Source of the DNA: a virus
Lineage: Duplodnaviria > Heunggongvirae > Uroviricota > Caudoviricetes
Reading direction: 5' to 3' (one strand)
Length of the DNA: 24,201 nt
IMG/VR virus record: IMGVR_UViG_2778261666_000010
Shown here: positions 15,469-23,139 of the stretch, in pieces
How positions within the stretch are numbered: position 1 is the stretch's first letter
Layout: the number at the start of each line of letters is the position of its first letter
Made by a program: the position numbers and the translations under genes
Notes under the pieces: generated by a model
Seen by the model: only the letters and a program-made list of their open reading frames with translations
Databases searched by the model: none
What the model was told of the DNA's origin: nothing

Positions 15469-15580
15469 TTACGGGATTTTTAAATCCCGCTTTTGCCTGT
15501 TTTGTGCGCGCTTCATATTTCGCGGCGCTTTTTTTGCTCATTTACGGGATTTGTGAATCCCGTTTCTGTCTGTTTTTTGT
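15469..15580. repeat. Two ~38-bp direct repeats, each with an internal hairpin and T-rich tail, straddling the gene A stop and the parM upstream region
   Basis: Copy A 15469-15506 (TTACGGGATTTTTAAATCCCGCTTTTGCCTGTTTTGTG) and copy B 15542-15580 (TTACGGGATTTGTGAATCCCGTTTCTGTCTGTTTTTTGT); copy B lies inside the last ~23 codons of gene A. Confidence 0.6.
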
Positions 15581-18335
15581 TCCCACGGGTCAGGCCACCC
15601 CGCAGCAGGTCTGCTTTGCGGTGGGCGCGTTCAGTGGTTTCACTGATTCTCTGTGCGTGCTCTGCGTCACGGATGGCGCGCAGCATGTCAGAAAGCACGG
15701 TAACGGGTGTCTTCATGGTGTTCTGGTCTTGCTGAAGTGTGGATGCCAGGCGTGCGGCGGCTTCGGGGTCTGATGCCCCTAGCTGTTCCAGATAGCTGGC
15801 GACCGGGTTATGGCGGATCTCCGTGCTGCTTACGCCGTGATTACGGCTCAGGCGCTGCCAGAGCTGCGTGATTCGGCTGTCCGGTCGGGTATCTGGTTTG
15901 CGTACAATTTCAAATCCCTGCGGTGCAATGATGCTGCCGTCAACGTACAGACTGCCGCCCCGTAACAGGTGCAGCATCTGTTGTTCACCGATATGCAGGC
16001 CGAGAGATTCGGCAGACTCCCGCCATTCTTTAGCGAGTAACTCGTGGTTATCAGGCAAAGGTCGCGGCTGTTTGCGGCTCTGTGTCCAGTTCTGCATTTC
16101 ATCGCTGCTGTTTTTTGCCTGTTTGTCACGAAGCGAACGCATCAGCGCCCGGCGTTCGTGCCGTTTCAGTGAGCGCATCCATTCATTTACTTCAACGCCG
16201 TCAGGAAGCTGCGGCCACGGTGCTGGCCGTTCTTCCGGCTGTTCTGTTCCGTTGTTGTTCGTTTCCTGTACACGGGGACAGTTATTGCCACGAGTCCAAG
16301 GGGCGGCAGGGCCGCCCTGAAGGTCAAAACCATTTTCGCGGGCGCTGTCTTCCGCTTCCGGTTTACGCCTTACCAGCTTCCAGTTATCCGGGTGCGTGCA
16401 CACGCGGGAAGACTCCCCGATGAGCGGCGACCAGATCCCGTAAATCTGTACACTCTGCTCGCCGTAATCGTTCAGTTCATCTGCGAGGTCGTAGGCGGTG
16501 CGAATCAGGTAGTCTTTACGTGGAACAAGTACGCCGCCCTGTTTTTCAATGTAGGAGGCAAAACACCCGGCATCGGCGGCAGCGAGTACCGCATCCATTG
16601 CGTCATCCTTCAGCCGTTGCGGGCCTTCCGGGTTGCGTGCCATCTGGCTGGCAAGGCGGCGCAGTTCACGCCACACCTGACGGGAGGGGATGCCAAAGAA
16701 CTGGAACTGGCGGACCCGATGAAGGCGCGCCCAGCCGATGGCGCGCTCCACGCTCTCGGCCATTGATTTTCCGGTTTCGTGGTCAACGCGTGGTTTGCCC
16801 GTTTTCGGGTCGATTCCATCCACGGCGCGGCTGTCCAGGTTTTTTCCGATGTAGGTGGCGATGTAGCTGGTTGGCGTGCCTTTGGAGCCGTCGACGTACT
16901 CCACCTTAAAGCGCGGAGTAATATCATTGCCCAGCTCGTGGCGGTCTTCCTGAATGGCAATATCGCGGGTGATGGCCACGATGCTGTCGATTTCTTCTGG
17001 ATGAGCAAAGACCATCATATGCCAGTGCACGGTGCCGTCATGGTGAGGCTCCACCGTGCGGATGCCATACCAGCGCAGGCCGTCGCGGTTCAGTTTCTTG
17101 CGGACCGCCGCAAAAAACGTGTTAACCAGGTAATCGCTGGAGTCGCGCATGGTGGCCCCGTTCCATTTGGGATTCGGATGACCGTTCTCTGTTGTGGCGT
17201 GGTATTTTGACGGGCAGGTGACAGTCAGAAACACCGCTTTGTCGCCACGGGCTTCGGCTAGAAGTTCCAGCCCCTTCATGGTGGCCATCATTTCTGCCTT
17301 ACGGTGAACCGGGTTACTTACTCCCGCGTAATACACTGTCTCAAGATCAATCGTGAAGCCGTCTTCGTTTTCCAGTTCGAAGCTCTTCAGGAAGTCGCGG
17401 GTTTTCTCGCGCTGTGCGCGAAACTCGCTTAACGCGTCCTGGCTCAGATAGGGTGATGTTTTTCTGGAAACCAGACAGGCGGCACGGAGCTGTTCTTCCC
17501 GCCACTCGCAACGTAAAAGCCACAGTTTGTGTTTCCACCATTCCGCACAGGTCAGGCGAAGGATGGCACCCGGCAGCAGCTCCGTATTCAGTGCGTTCTT
17601 CCGGTCTTTGTCCGTTCTCAGTGCTTCGTAATGCGGCGGCATGGTGTGCAGATGTAACGCCATGCGGGCCAGCATCTGATACGCCTTCAGCGCAATTTTC
17701 ATGGTCAGCTCGCCATCGGTCGCGCCAAAGTTATCGCAGAGTGTTTCGAAAGTGCTGCTGAACATCGCCGCCGTCATGGTGGCCAGCGTCTGTATCTGGT
17801 GTTTGTTGAGCTGCGGCAGGTAAAGCAAATCGTCCAGGCGTTCGCGTCCGGCAAGGGAGCAATAACACGGTGTCAGCCAGCGTCCGTCAGTGCGATCCAG
17901 ACGTTCGAATATTTTGCGCAGGGTTCCGCGTGCATAGCGTTCCGCCTGCCAGCTCTTTTTGCCTTTCCGGCGATCGGCTTCCTGTTTTTTGCGCAGGAAG
18001 GAGAGGTGGCGAATAAGCGGATCGCGCAGATAGGACGGCAGCAGGCGGAGCGAGGCCATGGCTTCATCCACCGCGCCGCGTGCCTGTTTTCTGGCGTCTC
18101 CTGTCAGTGTGATGGTTTTGTCCTGTTTTTCCTGTGCGTCCAGGCTTTTATTAATCAGGTTGCCCAGCGGCGTGGCGGAGAACGCCGCATCAGCCATTTC
18201 CTGGCGGCGCTCGTTCTCTGCCCGGTAGGCATCCAGCCAGGAGGAAAGCGCGGATTCAGGAGCGGGGATCCCCGTTCCTTCACGCCCCACTGCGTGGCGC
18301 GGTTGTTGCCAGTCCCTGATGTACTCTGCCGTCAT
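15513..18335 (-). CDS. A: Replication initiation endonuclease (P2 gpA-like, rolling-circle HUH family)
   Basis: 940 aa, ATG 18335; metal-binding motif EPHHDGTVHWHMMVF and downstream tyrosine region (...TSYIATYIGKN...). Longer than the ~761 aa I recall for P2 A. Confidence 0.85.
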   Translation of the reverse strand: MTAEYIRDWQQPRHAVGREGTGIPAPESALSSWLDAYRAENERRQEMADAAFSATPLGNLINKSLDAQEKQDKTITLTGDARKQARGAVDEAMASLRLLPSYLRDPLIRHLSFLRKKQEADRRKGKKSWQAERYARGTLRKIFERLDRTDGRWLTPCYCSLAGRERLDDLLYLPQLNKHQIQTLATMTAAMFSSTFETLCDNFGATDGELTMKIALKAYQMLARMALHLHTMPPHYEALRTDKDRKNALNTELLPGAILRLTCAEWWKHKLWLLRCEWREEQLRAACLVSRKTSPYLSQDALSEFRAQREKTRDFLKSFELENEDGFTIDLETVYYAGVSNPVHRKAEMMATMKGLELLAEARGDKAVFLTVTCPSKYHATTENGHPNPKWNGATMRDSSDYLVNTFFAAVRKKLNRDGLRWYGIRTVEPHHDGTVHWHMMVFAHPEEIDSIVAITRDIAIQEDRHELGNDITPRFKVEYVDGSKGTPTSYIATYIGKNLDSRAVDGIDPKTGKPRVDHETGKSMAESVERAIGWARLHRVRQFQFFGIPSRQVWRELRRLASQMARNPEGPQRLKDDAMDAVLAAADAGCFASYIEKQGGVLVPRKDYLIRTAYDLADELNDYGEQSVQIYGIWSPLIGESSRVCTHPDNWKLVRRKPEAEDSARENGFDLQGGPAAPWTRGNNCPRVQETNNNGTEQPEERPAPWPQLPDGVEVNEWMRSLKRHERRALMRSLRDKQAKNSSDEMQNWTQSRKQPRPLPDNHELLAKEWRESAESLGLHIGEQQMLHLLRGGSLYVDGSIIAPQGFEIVRKPDTRPDSRITQLWQRLSRNHGVSSTEIRHNPVASYLEQLGASDPEAAARLASTLQQDQNTMKTPVTVLSDMLRAIRDAEHAQRISETTERAHRKADLLRGGLTRGNKKQTETGFTNPVNEQKKRREI

Positions 18336-18341
18336 AGTGAT

Positions 18342-18707
18342 TTACTTCGTCATGCCATTCAGGGTGTCGCGGCAGACGGCAGCCAGCCGCTGAATTTCCA
18401 GCACGGTGTCTTCTGTGTCGGCATGGCGATGTGTGATGCGGATGCTGTCGGCAATCACATCGACGATTGCAGAGGATGGGCGCTGGTAAATGCCAATAAC
18501 GGACGGGGTGCCGCCTTCAATGCGGTAAAGCCTGTAATTTCCCTCGTGGCTGTCAATCATGTAGCGACCATCAATAACAATCTTTCCGTCAGCGAGCTGC
18601 GGTACAGGCAGGGATTTCAGGTACATGTCATAACGTTCACGCACGCGAACGGCAAGATCACGCTCTGTGTTGAGCAGGTATTCAAGAAAGTCGTTGGCGA
18701 GAATCAT
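18342..18707 (-). CDS. Hypothetical early protein (121 aa)
   Basis: ATG 18707 with AGAGGA upstream; ends 7 nt before gene A; position of the small P2 orfs preceding A. Confidence 0.55.
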   Translation of the reverse strand: MILANDFLEYLLNTERDLAVRVRERYDMYLKSLPVPQLADGKIVIDGRYMIDSHEGNYRLYRIEGGTPSVIGIYQRPSSAIVDVIADSIRITHRHADTEDTVLEIQRLAAVCRDTLNGMTK

Positions 18708-18779
18708 TGCGGCAATCCTCTTGTTACAGATGTGCGAAGGCCTCCCGCCGCAAGGTGCAGGAAAGGCCCGGAACAGGAA

Positions 18780-19010
18780 TTAATGGAGTTTGTTTTGCTG
18801 CTCGATGAGCTGCTGAAGCTCGCGCAGATCATCCGCCAGATAGCTAAATACTGCGGCGGAGTAGGCGTTTGACAGCACGTGGCTGTGCTCATGTGACATG
18901 TTGATGAACATGATACGAGCGACGCGTGATGCGCGGTAAAGTCTGCGGTTGATTTCAGTCTGGATGTGACGACGCGCAGCGTATGCGCGCTGTTGTTTGC
19001 GGTTTGCCAT
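18780..19010 (-). CDS. Hypothetical early protein (76 aa)
   Basis: ATG 19010 with AGAGG upstream; first gene after the 320-bp structured non-coding region. Confidence 0.5.
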   Translation of the reverse strand: MANRKQQRAYAARRHIQTEINRRLYRASRVARIMFINMSHEHSHVLSNAYSAAVFSYLADDLRELQQLIEQQNKLH

Positions 19011-19188
19011 GGTGTGGCCTCTTTGCTAGTAAGTTTTAAAAACTCACCATCCAGAGGTGGAAAACTCGGGGTGGTGAGACGTACAGGGTTTCCACAACCG
19101 GCTAGCAAAGAACCCGGCCCGACCGAAGTCGGCCCCATACGCCCCACCATAATTCGTGTGCGAAAAAGACGTGGCGATACGGTACGCA

Positions 19189-19210
19189 CAAAAAAACCGC
19201 TGGCGCGGTT
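19189..19210 (-). terminator. Candidate intrinsic terminator (minus strand) inside the early region
   Basis: Minus-strand RNA would read AACCGC-GCCA-GCGGUU followed by UUUUUU; short GC stem, moderate strength. Confidence 0.4.
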
Positions 19211-19330
19211 GTGCGCTTTGCTAGTCAGCGGGGTGGAAATCCCGGCACCCGTTTTATGAGGTGCAGCGGAAATGTAACCTGACTGATTGCGGCATGGCAA
19301 GCGGTTTTTTTGTGTGTGCATGATGATTAC

Positions 19331-20322: not shown

Positions 20323-20739
20323 CTATGCGTTAAATACGGCACGTTGCGCGTCATCAATGAATACAGCTTGAGAGCGTTCTATCAGGCGGAGATTCGTCAG
20401 AAGCTCTGACTCTTTTGTGTGGTAAGGCGTTATCAGGTATTTGCCGTGCAGTTCGGAAATAATGGTGTATCGCATCATCATTGCCGAACCAAGAATGTAA
20501 ATGCTGCGTCCAATGATGGACGGATTCATGGCTGCAACTGTTGACTGTGTTTTAAGAGTGTCGATTTCTTTGCTCTGTTCCTCAATGATTTTAGCTGCGT
20601 CAGCGGTGATTTTTGCAATGGTCAGTGCGTGAAGTGCTGCCATGTGTTGGCTATGCTTCATGGCATCTTTAGCCATTTGGTCTTCCGCTTCAGATATTTT
20701 TTTTAATGTGTCGATGATGCCTTCTTCTTTTGCGTTCAT
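20323..20739 (-). CDS. Hypothetical protein (138 aa), helical N-terminus
   Basis: Start moved to ATG 20739 (MNAKEEGIIDTLKK...) with GGAG upstream; the track's N-terminal extension is arginine-rich and lacks an SD. Confidence 0.5.
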   Translation of the reverse strand: MNAKEEGIIDTLKKISEAEDQMAKDAMKHSQHMAALHALTIAKITADAAKIIEEQSKEIDTLKTQSTVAAMNPSIIGRSIYILGSAMMMRYTIISELHGKYLITPYHTKESELLTNLRLIERSQAVFIDDAQRAVFNA

Positions 20740-20831
20740 TTTATATCTCCGTTGTTTACGTGTGCGAATACCTCCGCGCATGCGGATGGTTTTCACGTTT
20801 TCTTATTTAATCCGGTGTTTTGTTTGTGCTG

Positions 20832-20945
20832 TTATTCACCAGTGAAAAAACGTTCAATCTTTTTTACTGAATGAATAATTCGCATAATCCCAATGGCACA
20901 GGCCACCGAAATAATCAGAACAAACCATGAGATAAATATACTCAT
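20832..20945 (-). CDS. Small single-pass membrane peptide (37 aa); absent from the ORF track
   Basis: Minus-strand ATG 20945 overlaps the upstream gene stop (ATGA) and has GGGGAA upstream; translation MSIFISWFVLIISVACAIGIMRIIHSVKKIERFFTGE is a hydrophobic helix followed by a basic tail. Confidence 0.4.
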   Translation of the reverse strand: MSIFISWFVLIISVACAIGIMRIIHSVKKIERFFTGE

Positions 20946-21184
20946 GCGATATTCCCCAGCTTATACGGTTCAATATGTTCCCCGCATTCTGCGGCACAGA
21001 TCAGCTCGGAAAGCTCGTTAAGTGCATCCAGATCATCAGCGTAAAAAGCCACGTCATACAGACTCCGGATTGCTCTGGTTAATGAGTCACGGGCTGCACG
21101 TTCAGCATGAGCGCCTGATGCACTTAAGCGAAAATAAAAACGCTCAAGTGCTTTGTTAATGAGAGTTTTATATTCTTTGCCCAT
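20942..21184 (-). CDS. Hypothetical protein (80 aa)
   Basis: Track start 21187 is GTG; the adjacent ATG 21184 is used (MGKEYKTLINKALERF...). Confidence 0.5.
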   Translation of the reverse strand: MGKEYKTLINKALERFYFRLSASGAHAERAARDSLTRAIRSLYDVAFYADDLDALNELSELICAAECGEHIEPYKLGNIA

Positions 21185-21195
21185 CACAACGCCCT

Positions 21196-21474
21196 TTAAT
21201 CTGCTTTCTGAATTTCAGCTTCTGAATCCATACAAATAATTTCGATATAGGGTTCATCGCCATTAACCTGACGTGCCTTTTCAGCTTCGCTAATGATTTC
21301 GCGTACGGTCTGGTACGGAAGTTCCACAAACAATCGCGTGCCGTTCAGATAAAGGTAAGTGGCCACATCTTTTTCTGCCGGGACTACAGCATCAATAGCT
21401 GATGCGCGTAACAACAACTCACCGCGAAAATCAATAAAGCGGATAAATACACCTTGTGCATGGTCTTTAGTCAT
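21196..21474 (-). CDS. Hypothetical protein (92 aa)
   Basis: Start moved to ATG 21474 (MTKDHAQGVFIRFIDFRG...) with AGGTG upstream, just after the upstream stop. Confidence 0.5.
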   Translation of the reverse strand: MTKDHAQGVFIRFIDFRGELLLRASAIDAVVPAEKDVATYLYLNGTRLFVELPYQTVREIISEAEKARQVNGDEPYIEIICMDSEAEIQKAD

Positions 21475-21484
21475 AAAGCACCTG

Positions 21485-21943
21485 TTATAAATCAGCTTGT
21501 TTAATAAAACTTTGCCCACGAAGCAGACGATCAACTGTGCGAAGTGCTTCGTATAATGTGAAATCCTGCCCGAACTGATTGTCGCCGCAGTTCAATGCAA
21601 AAATGCGGTTTCCGGTAAATGGATTGCGTGGGCATCTGTGAACTACGATTCCAGCTTTTTCAATCAGCCAAGTGTGTTCGCCAATTTGTTTTACTGTATG
21701 GCCATCTGGCGTTGCGTGCGTCTCGCTTAGGCTGTAGCGAGAGTTGCTACGTGATGCACTGGTAGTGAAGCGGTTAGCGTGGCGTTCTGCGCCGTTGCGG
21801 AAGCGCTGTTGTGAAGAATTGCGCTGTTGCTTCATGTCAAAAACTCCGTACCTGTTTACTTCCCCGGCATAACGCCCATTTTCAAAATAATTGCGGCGAA
21901 ATCCCATGTTATTGGGTTCGCTGTTTCGCTGTTGCTTATTCAT
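21485..21943 (-). CDS. Hypothetical protein (152 aa), low-complexity N-terminus
   Basis: Track start 21970 is TTG; ATG 21943 (MNKQQRNSEPNN...) has an SD-like TAGAGG upstream; N/Q/R/S-rich first half, structured-looking C-terminal half. Confidence 0.5.
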   Translation of the reverse strand: MNKQQRNSEPNNMGFRRNYFENGRYAGEVNRYGVFDMKQQRNSSQQRFRNGAERHANRFTTSASRSNSRYSLSETHATPDGHTVKQIGEHTWLIEKAGIVVHRCPRNPFTGNRIFALNCGDNQFGQDFTLYEALRTVDRLLRGQSFIKQADL

Positions 21944-21954
21944 TTTTTGTGCCT

Positions 21955-22296
21955 CTACCCGATAAGCCAAATAACAAACGCTATGAGCACCGCGCCAATA
22001 GTGGTCGGGAAAAGACCTCTGGTATAGGCGGCGAGGTAATGAACGTTGAGAACAATAAAGCGCTCTTTTTGTCCTGTTAGCTTGTTAAGCAGATAAATCG
22101 CTATTACACCCACTTCCAGGAATACAAGGTTCAGAATGGCGCTGATGATATTGCTGGTTATTTTTGTGTGTTTAGTTGCCTTCGCTGCTTTTGAGTCGCT
22201 CCAGCTTTGAACTTCTGCCTGTATAAACTCGCTTACCGTTAATGGTCTGGCAGTCTTCTTTATTAGCTGGAAAGAACTTTCTTTTCTGGCGGTCAT
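21955..22296 (-). CDS. Possible overprinted two-helix membrane protein (low confidence)
   Basis: Alternative frame overlapping the 3' end of the Cox-like gene; the C-terminal 70 aa are strongly hydrophobic (ITSNIISAILNLVFLEVGVIAIYLL... LFPTTIGAVLIAFVIWLIG); the only in-frame ATG is at 22296, with a weak SD. Confidence 0.25.
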   Translation of the reverse strand: MTARKESSFQLIKKTARPLTVSEFIQAEVQSWSDSKAAKATKHTKITSNIISAILNLVFLEVGVIAIYLLNKLTGQKERFIVLNVHYLAAYTRGLFPTTIGAVLIAFVIWLIG

Positions 22297-22693
22297 ACGT
22301 CCAGTAACTTTTCCAGTTGTGCCATTCTGGTGGCTCAAGTTCCGGTAGCTCGTCAGCCAGTGCGTCCCACTCTTTGGCGTTAAACCACCATACTCCGTCT
22401 GAGTTTTCATCTTCCGGGTTTGTGCGCGTCTTGTGTCCCGGCATTTGACCGCGATGAATGGCTACGCGCAGTGCAGATTTTGTTAGCCCAATATATGCCG
22501 CGCCTTTTTCCAGAGAGCAAAGCCCGGCGATCGGACCATCCAGCCGTAAAGTCGCTCCTTTTTTGTAGGAACGCTTTTTCTTGTTTTCTTCGTGTTCGTC
22601 GTCGTTGGCGGCATCAATGGATCCGCTGAGTGCGTCACTTTCCTGAAGTGGTTGGTGGTCAGATAACTCTTTATCGGCAATGAAGTCCCGCAT
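22172..22693 (-). CDS. Cox/Apl/Cro-position HTH regulator, first gene of the early operon (173 aa)
   Basis: ATG 22693 with AAGAGGA upstream; divergent from the repressor; acidic N-terminus then an HTH-like segment (AAYIGLTKSALRVAIHRGQMPG) and a Trp-rich region. Much longer than P2 Cox (91 aa from memory). Confidence 0.6.
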   Translation of the reverse strand: MRDFIADKELSDHQPLQESDALSGSIDAANDDEHEENKKKRSYKKGATLRLDGPIAGLCSLEKGAAYIGLTKSALRVAIHRGQMPGHKTRTNPEDENSDGVWWFNAKEWDALADELPELEPPEWHNWKSYWTYDRQKRKFFPANKEDCQTINGKRVYTGRSSKLERLKSSEGN

Positions 22694-22752
22694 TTGTTAT
22701 CCTCTTGCGTTGGTGCGCTTGTCGCGCCTTGTGATGGTTTGTTTTGGCTTGT

Positions 22753-22808
22753 AAAGATAATCAAACGGTTATCTTTGTGCGAGAGGTTAATACTCAAATG
22801 GTTATCTT
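22753..22808. promoter_or_regulatory. Candidate operator elements of the immunity switch
   Basis: Perfect inverted repeat AAAGATAA-N8-TTATCTTT (22753-22776), plus a 9-bp direct repeat GGTTATCTT at 22767 and 22800 (33 bp apart), the second overlapping the repressor start codon. Confidence 0.45.
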
Positions 22809-23139
22809 GTCAATAGACTATGCAAAAAAGTTACGTCAGATACGTAAGGCGGAAGGGTTAACACAAAAGCAGTTTGCGGATATTACTGGGTTGTCTTTGG
22901 CAACCATAAGGAATTACGAATCGGGGCAAAAGAACGCTAGAGCAAAAATCGTTGAGGCGGTTCTGCAAGTCGATCGCTTTGAAAAATACATGCTGTGGCT
23001 AATAAAAGATAAGACGCTACCTGTCGCCGGGCAGATTGCTCCGGCTCTCTCTCTTGATGGATCTATTCAGTCGGAGGGCGATCAGGTTTCAATCGGTATT
23101 ACCCAAAAATCACCCCGATCAGGCCGCAATGTTGGCTGA
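22798..23139 (+). CDS. Immunity repressor (P2 C / lambda CI-type, HTH_XRE)
   Basis: Start placed at ATG 22798 (MVILSIDYAKKLRQIRKAEGLTQKQFADITGLSLATIRNYESGQ...), a classic XRE HTH; upstream of and co-oriented with int, as in P2 C-int. The track's earlier start 22744 remains possible. Confidence 0.7.
   Translation: MVILSIDYAKKLRQIRKAEGLTQKQFADITGLSLATIRNYESGQKNARAKIVEAVLQVDRFEKYMLWLIKDKTLPVAGQIAPALSLDGSIQSEGDQVSIGITQKSPRSGRNVG

Follow-up and report, generated by a model that had tools for sequence, protein, structure and literature searches.

The question raised by this locus is whether a frame of just 37 codons, which begins on the stop codon of an early phage gene, encodes a protein and, if so, what that protein might do. 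We analyzed the complete 24,201-nt stretch of viral DNA that contains it (IMG/VR record IMGVR_UViG_2778261666_000010), referred to here as the window. A previous reading, made from the letters of the DNA without database searches (the sequence-only reading), proposed an unannotated membrane peptide that is translationally coupled to the preceding gene, and suggested that it could be a superinfection-exclusion factor, a toxin or a modulator of host membrane proteins. The 37-codon ATG-to-TAA frame is indeed present on the minus strand in both the sequence and the ORF listing, with its TAA at 20834-20832 (Table 1); the sequence-only reading did not give the strand. Its length by itself is not significant because 59 ORFs of at least 20 aa overlap the surrounding 3 kb. 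Thus, the case for a gene rests on comparative conservation.

P88-like prophages in E. coli and Citrobacter, which belong to Xuanwuvirus (Peduoviridae, P2 family), share 85-96% identity with the region. The gene order of the window matches the annotation of P88, with the gene of interest placed after Cox and before replication gene A. A 92-nt spacer comes next, and then genes for a PHROG 9338 protein, a PHROG 3459 protein, a winged-helix protein and an HTH protein, the isrK and C4 RNAs, and genes for a Derepression protein and GPA. In P2, the Cox-led early lytic operon is transcribed from Pe and is repressed by C in lysogens, as described in PMC1904263 and in the P2 annotation. If the P2 switch logic applies, the peptide would be made right after infection or derepression and would not be made in a stable lysogen.

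Table 1. Features of the early region of the window, in order from the integrase gene to the replication gene.
Feature	Position	Strand	Basis
Integrase	from 23194	+	
C-type HTH repressor	22744-23139	+	
Cox	22172-22693	-	
DUF4761 protein	ends at 21485	-	
PHROG 3800 protein	ends at 21196	-	
DUF4754 protein, 80 aa, upstream coupled gene	20942..21184	-	Pfam PF15946, E = 2.9e-54
SD-like GGGGAA, 8 nt 5' of the ATG, in Leu-Gly-Asn codons of DUF4754	20952..20957	-	Pairing energy; motifs of relatives
ATGA stop/start overlap, DUF4754 TGA and peptide ATG	20942..20945	-	Sequence; comparison of loci
CDS, 37-aa small membrane protein MSIFISWFVLIISVACAIGIMRIIHSVKKIERFFTGE, stop TAA	20832..20945	-	ORF listing, annotated orthologues, frame conservation
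Predicted TM helix IFISWFVLIISVACAIGIM, codons 3-21	20883..20939	-	Kyte-Doolittle, column conservation, AF2 helix
Basic amphipathic tail RIIHSVKKIERFFTGE, codons 22-37, predicted cytoplasmic	20835..20882	-	Charge, hydrophobic moment, conservation, length variants
Spacer of 92 nt, peptide stop to next gene (ATG 20739, PHROG 9338)	20740..20831	-	
Conserved 5-bp hairpin UCCGC-AUGC-GCGGA in spacer, 45 nt past the stop	20773..20786	-	
GPA replication protein	15513-18335	-	

Elsewhere in the early operon, Rfam identified a C4 antisense RNA (78.8 bits; 19067-19154, minus strand) and the isrK Hfq-binding RNA (63.8 bits; 19190-19264, minus strand), both at gathering level. These RNAs are encoded just 5' of a Derepression-family gene (18780-19010, PF25738), and they overlap a 205-aa ORF (18704-19321) with a match to the Ash family (PF10554). 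The arrangement resembles an RNA-based module for immunity and antirepression of the P1/P4 style, here within a P2-type phage.

To evaluate conservation, we fetched 180 related loci, anchored on DUF4754. The frame is intact in 176 of them, as a product of 37 aa (163 loci), 41 aa (two loci) or 45 aa (11 loci). Three of the other loci are cut to 30 aa by a slip from A6 to A7, and one is frameshifted early. The 54 intact sequences that are distinct give a pN/pS of 0.27 in the ORF frame, as compared to 1.31 and 1.11 in the other sense frames and 1.68, 0.33 and 0.99 in the antisense frames. The antisense frame with the value of 0.33 is the one that shares wobble positions with the ORF. For 92 joint haplotypes, pN/pS is 0.30 for the peptide (0.23 for the transmembrane part and 0.35 for the tail) and 0.21 for DUF4754.

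The signal extends to distant relatives of 41 aa, which are 49-54% identical to the peptide and retain the hydrophobic helix and basic tail. In all 16 places with such relatives that we examined, the gene order is int, C and Cox, followed by DUF4761, a DUF4754-like gene of 80 aa and the peptide gene; their immunity regions differ. The 4-nt overlap is kept in 15 of the 16; in the exception (L196), DUF4754 is cut short at 57 aa and its gene stops 64 nt short of the peptide gene. When the window sequence is compared to six 41-aa sequences, pS is 0.53 and pN is 0.215, with dN/dS of about 0.28 in frame versus 0.97 and 3.05 out of frame. Identity to the distant relatives is 54% for the peptide, 32-38% for DUF4754 and 71-79% for DUF4761. 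One locus (L180) encodes a peptide with 81% identity and a DUF4754 with 44% identity.

These comparisons demonstrate that 20945..20832 (minus strand) encodes a protein, evolves under purifying selection and is an orthologue of phage P88 gp07, and we have very high confidence that it is translated. A 47-aa ORF that starts with GTG in an alternative frame of the same strand (20854-20997) was also considered and was rejected, as its pN/pS is 1.1-1.3. Database "proteins" of 103-128 aa that include the frame of this 47-aa ORF (P0004, P0016, P0022 and others) are frameshifted fusions from short assemblies.

The peptide ATG (20945-20943) overlaps the TGA (20944-20942) of the 80-aa DUF4754 gene, as had been proposed. 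Every one of the 180 loci has the peptide gene directly after DUF4754, with a 4-nt overlap, within the Cox-to-gpA early operon; the overlap is ATGA in 179 loci and GTGA in one. The sequence-only reading also pointed to an SD-like motif. GGGGAA is present, and its pairing with the anti-SD at the 3' end of 16S rRNA is -5.5 kcal/mol, which is equaled at 9% of random positions on the same strand; the motif alone is therefore weak evidence. Distant relatives have G-rich purine motifs at the same distance (GAGGAG, CAGGAGGAAG, AGGGGAA and CTGGAGG), and these persist though the overlapping C-termini of DUF4754 differ. The mRNA fold around the peptide start is not unusual (z = -0.7), so we find no structure that enforces coupling.

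Coupling by termination and reinitiation at AUGA overlaps is established from classical operon examples. At this locus, ribosomes that finish DUF4754 would reinitiate at the overlapping AUG, aided by the modest SD motif, and DUF4754 and the peptide would consequently be made together from the Cox-led early (Pe-type) transcript. The co-occurrence of the two genes could also reflect linkage alone. A programmed -1 frameshift that fuses DUF4754 to the peptide was rejected because the slippery site is not conserved: the possible slip site is G GGA AAT in some alleles and G GGG AAT in most, and there is none in the distant relatives. The peptide frame is open for only six codons 5' of its ATG.

Overall, the proposal of a real gene for a small membrane protein, coupled to the early gene that precedes it, is supported by the conserved overlap, the G-rich motif and a frame under purifying selection. 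Two findings had been named in advance that would count against it, the absence of a translation signal and a frame that is not conserved in related phages. Neither was obtained, as the ATGA overlap and G-rich motif are conserved, and so is the frame.

The predicted architecture of the peptide is simple. Residues 3-21 have a Kyte-Doolittle mean of 2.63, the highest for any 19-residue stretch among the 165 window ORFs of 30-60 aa. The tail (residues 22-37) includes R22, K28, K29, R32 and H25 versus E31 and E37, for a net charge of +2. It is amphipathic, with a hydrophobic moment (muH) of 0.72 that is reached by 2% of shuffled sequences. AlphaFold2, run with a 41-sequence family alignment, predicts one continuous helix from residue 2 to residue 34 (pLDDT 88). 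Hydropathy, charge and predicted structure thus all agree with the earlier description of a clean transmembrane helix followed by a basic tail. If small membrane proteins are defined as those of no more than 50 aa with one predicted transmembrane helix, the 37-aa peptide belongs among them.

Residues F4, S6, W7, L10, I11, A17, G19, I20, I24, I30, E31 and F34 are invariant or nearly so, and R22, I23 and K28 are also strongly conserved. Positions 15, 25, 26, 29, 32 and 35-37 are variable, as is the length (37, 41 and 45 aa forms). Conservation of a single helical face is not significant (p = 0.35 at 100 degrees), and thus we make no claim of a defined interaction stripe. The N-terminal side of the helix is uncharged and the C-terminal side is basic. 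The positive-inside rule, which predicts the orientation of membrane proteins, therefore suggests that the peptide is oriented N-out/C-in, with about 16 residues forming the cytoplasmic tail. The 41-aa forms gain a C-terminal KRRK, KRHK or KHHK, and this reinforces the C-in prediction. Once inserted in the inner membrane, the peptide would have two N-terminal residues in the periplasm, a membrane-spanning segment at residues 3-21 and a cytoplasmic tail at residues 22-35.

The gene contains an A6 run (20855-20860) and a T6 run (20844-20849; both minus strand) at which length variants recur in nature. The A7 variant produces a 30-aa truncation ending in KKD, which also occurs in E. fergusonii entries; L125, L173 and L174 are among the variant loci. 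The 45-aa forms result from a frameshift in the T-run near the 3' end, where a change of one base yields proteins whose tail is new (RFSLANNRANKTTG or similar); several of these proteins belong to clusters with many members. The homopolymer variants could be sequencing errors or real slippage. Given the 30-aa truncations and the 45-aa tails, the extreme C-terminus, or the whole gene in some lysogens, may be dispensable.

The upstream partner, DUF4754, is modeled by AlphaFold2 with a pLDDT of 88 and helices at residues 3-24, 26-49 and 53-67, and is predicted to be a soluble three-helix bundle. A Foldseek search of the model against PDB returned no match at E <= 1e-3; the hits were to generic helical bundles (best E = 2).

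Variability is greatest in the spacer just 3' of the peptide gene (pi up to 0.23). The hairpin within this spacer occurs in 166 of the 180 loci and in distant relatives with different flanks (L181, L187 and L191). It has the form UCCGC-N4-GCGGA followed by GG, with a variable loop. All 19 distinct hairpin sequences pair at every position, with one compensatory change from C-G to U-A and one G-U that pairs only on the sense strand. The z-score of the fold is -3.6, and there is no U-tract on the sense strand. On the opposite strand the hairpin is followed by a T-rich run and, judging from this arrangement, it looks like a weak terminator there. Its site corresponds to the position of tR1 in 186 and of the terminator after B in P2. 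Two loci (L196 and L198) have a different hairpin at this site, with a T-run on the sense strand.

The next gene in the window encodes a 138-aa PHROG 9338 protein (20323-20739). In P88, the spacer leads straight to the PHROG 3459 homologue. In the other relatives that we compared (L001-L003 and L181-L198), what lies past the spacer includes genes for ParE-like, Rv2179c-like exonuclease, D12 methyltransferase, SPFH and Ea22-like proteins, and 160-aa genes on the opposite strand. From this comparison, a hotspot for insertion of accessory genes appears to start directly after the conserved hairpin. The mechanical ORF list begins the next gene at GTG 20796 (157 aa), which reads through the hairpin. 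The start is at ATG 20739 in public annotation and in most relatives, and the upstream extension is closed by TAA in many of them. Thus, the 157-aa form is probably an artifact of an upstream frame that is open in this allele.

The proposal that the peptide was unannotated proved to be wrong. RefSeq WP_000021656.1, P88 gp07 and other NCBI entries already cover the 37-aa gene, and the ORF-size cut-off that was used at the first stage hides genes that have been called in public annotation. The corresponding 114-nt CDS in RefSeq (UMNK88, UTI89) is recorded as WP_000021656.1, "hypothetical protein". P88 gp07 (YP_009113050.1) is labeled "membrane protein", the vB_EcoM-569R5 protein "putative membrane protein" and some UniProt entries "Prophage membrane protein". 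The window peptide differs from WP_000021656.1 at one position (L8F). The exact window form, with F8, is present in 191 contigs in NCBI, and the L8 form in more than 1000. The CDS was left uncalled in a few phage records (e.g., phage 503458). The window gene has the same length, the same 4-nt overlap with DUF4754 and the same operon as P88 gp07 / WP_000021656.1, with no structural difference between them; the labels in the public entries were assigned computationally.

Of 5426 complete E. coli genomes, 1195 (approximately 22%) contain a match to a 161-nt probe, and in a spread sample of E. coli genomes an annotated CDS underlies the match in all 39 rows with full coverage. Carriers of the gene include UTI89 and strains of ST131 and O157:H7. 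Using tblastn, we identified matches in 12 phage records with 78.8-97.3% identity and E values from 3e-7 to 4e-15 (97% for the P88 record). A phmmer search of 1.84 billion representatives returned just seven clusters at E <= 1e-3, and a profile search headed by a 41-aa relative returned 152 proteins at E <= 1. The best 120 of these 152 have E <= 1.9e-8; all are labeled "hypothetical", and those with a named source are all from Escherichia. Cluster members also occur in Shigella and Salmonella, and a relative is present in a Citrobacter phage. The family is restricted to P88-like prophages of the P2 family in Escherichia and its close relatives.

We found no match above threshold for the 37-aa peptide in Pfam, PHROG, NCBIfam, PADLOC or PDB sequences. 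A scan of 41 family members returned only sub-threshold matches driven by the transmembrane segment (best E = 0.039 for DUF6007 and 0.016 for phrog_5620). Similarity to the uncurated P88 gp07 / WP_000021656.1 family is significant over the full length. As far as sequence searches indicate, the peptide is thus a member of that family and not of any curated family. Our literature searches returned no mention of the peptide, its WP accession or DUF4754, and nothing relevant on small membrane proteins in P2-like early operons. One locus (L004; NZ_JBQPOM010000071.1) is on a 226-kb contig labeled Vagococcus sp. WN89Y, a Gram-positive genus. The prophage segment that it carries is of E. coli type and has an intact 37-aa peptide gene and a DUF4754 with 98% identity to that of the window. 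The label likely reflects contamination or a mislabeled assembly.

Several explanations for this conserved gene can be weighed. One is that there is no functional protein, and that the DNA or RNA itself is constrained, for example as a recombination junction, an RNA structure or a regulatory element, with translation being incidental. Truncated alleles exist, a conserved hairpin follows the ORF, and synonymous diversity of the peptide gene (20835-20945) is about half that of DUF4754 (20945-21184), with pS of 0.14 versus 0.30 and third-position pi of 0.09 versus 0.19. The latter hints at extra nucleotide constraint or at recent recombinational spread; low values of this kind could arise from a recombination junction, a sweep or an added constraint at the RNA level. 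However, selection is frame-specific and the start-region fold is unremarkable. Furthermore, deep relatives that differ at 53% of synonymous sites still retain the length, helix, tail, overlap and key residues, and we therefore consider this explanation to be very improbable. Another possibility is a membrane-damaging toxin (a type I toxin, holin or depolarizer) used for addiction, abortive infection or lysis timing. The size, single hydrophobic helix and basic tail of the peptide resemble those of type I toxins such as Hok and TisB, and some type I toxins are carried by prophages (PMC12648545). Unlike Hok and TisB, the peptide has no recognized antitoxin RNA and no promoter or leader of its own, and its gene is translationally coupled inside a polycistronic early operon. 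Rfam identified no antisense or overlapping sRNA of a described family at the locus; no family reached the gathering threshold at or near the ORF, where only chance-level matches were found at E <= 10. There is also no promoter-like site on the plus strand between 19800 and 23300. For lack of a recognizable antisense antitoxin and of an independent transcript, we rejected assignment to a type I toxin-antitoxin system. A holin or other lysis-cassette protein was rejected too, as the gene is not in a lysis cassette and is instead flanked by DUF4754 and early accessory genes, 5' of replication gene A. In addition, the gene is intact in about 22% of complete E. coli genomes, and we regard a toxin as quite improbable.

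A superinfection-exclusion factor would block the entry of incoming phage DNA, either from the prophage or transiently during early lytic growth. This would suit a small predicted inner-membrane protein of a temperate phage, and exclusion proteins that are expressed early are known in other phages, the early genes imm and sp of T4 being responsible for superinfection exclusion. T4 Imm and Sp and HK97 gp15 are likewise small phage inner-membrane proteins. They are larger than the 37-aa peptide, and those of prophages are made in the lysogen, whereas the peptide gene is in a repressed early operon; we detected no homology to any of the three. The gene is mid-operon behind Cox, on the strand read from the early promoter, which is repressed by C in lysogens, so classical exclusion by a protein expressed from the prophage is unlikely; exclusion during early lytic growth is possible. 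Promoter-like matches are at chance level (three found versus 5.0 +/- 2.4 expected), and the gene is outside the slots for lysogenic conversion in P2-type phages that hold old and tin. The peptide is also strictly coupled to a soluble protein, and we know of no exclusion protein for which this is the case. Overall, exclusion is an unlikely function for this peptide.

The best explanation, and in our view a probable one, is that the gene encodes a coupled early small membrane protein that acts on a membrane target, with DUF4754 as its candidate partner. Of the three functions suggested by the sequence-only reading, modulation of a host membrane protein would be the most plausible. In such a scheme, the peptide would act as bacterial small membrane-protein regulators do, and its transmembrane helix (S6, W7, L10, A17 and G19) might bind a larger inner-membrane protein. 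The conserved tail face (I23/I24, K28, I30, E31 and F34) might contact a cytoplasmic partner. The most economical candidate for that partner would be the co-translated three-helix DUF4754, which the peptide could tether to the membrane, and the two may form an early host-takeover module. A more specific version is tentative and, we think, rather unlikely: DUF4754 and the peptide would constitute a hitherto unrecognized, membrane-tethered two-protein module for host takeover or anti-defence, specific to P88-like phages, in which the peptide recruits DUF4754 to a host complex of the inner membrane in the first minutes of lytic growth, as a functional replacement for fil and dhr of 186. The divisome, membrane proteases such as FtsH, and defence systems bound to the membrane are examples of possible targets.

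At present, the gene adds one more to the conserved small membrane proteins of phages, an ordinary kind of gene whose existence and architecture would not surprise a specialist, and no specific new mechanism is indicated. It is, however, found in roughly a fifth of complete E. coli genomes. Central host machinery is often the target of genes in the early operons of temperate phages, so that defining the membrane target of this peptide would provide a tool or a mechanism relevant to host takeover and to conflicts between phages or between phages and defence systems.

Among known systems, the peptide can be compared to the regulators MgtS (31 aa) and MgtR (30 aa), which likewise have fewer than 50 aa, a single transmembrane helix and a short charged tail. 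Small membrane proteins such as these work by binding a larger inner-membrane protein (PMC12648545). We found no sequence relationship between this class and the peptide, which, unlike MgtS and MgtR, is phage-encoded; its gene is part of an early lytic operon and is coupled to that of a soluble partner. Within the P2 family, the same early-operon position, after the Cox/Apl switch gene and before a hairpin and the replication genes, is occupied by fil and dhr in 186 and by B in P2. In 186, fil (division inhibitor) and dhr (host-replication inhibitor) are ahead of terminator tR1, and B of P2 is similarly ahead of a terminator; the P88-type hairpin in this slot differs in that its sense strand lacks a U-tract. 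None of Fil, Dhr and B is a membrane protein (maximum 19-residue hydropathy of 1.26, 0.49 and 0.83, respectively) or has similarity to the peptide, and a scan of the early operons of P2 and 186 identified no small transmembrane ORF. Thus, the analogy is one of position only. Fil and dhr overlap each other, as DUF4754 and the peptide gene do, and the P88-type pair fills the promoter-proximal slot ahead of the intercistronic hairpin that is taken by fil and dhr in 186 and by B in P2.
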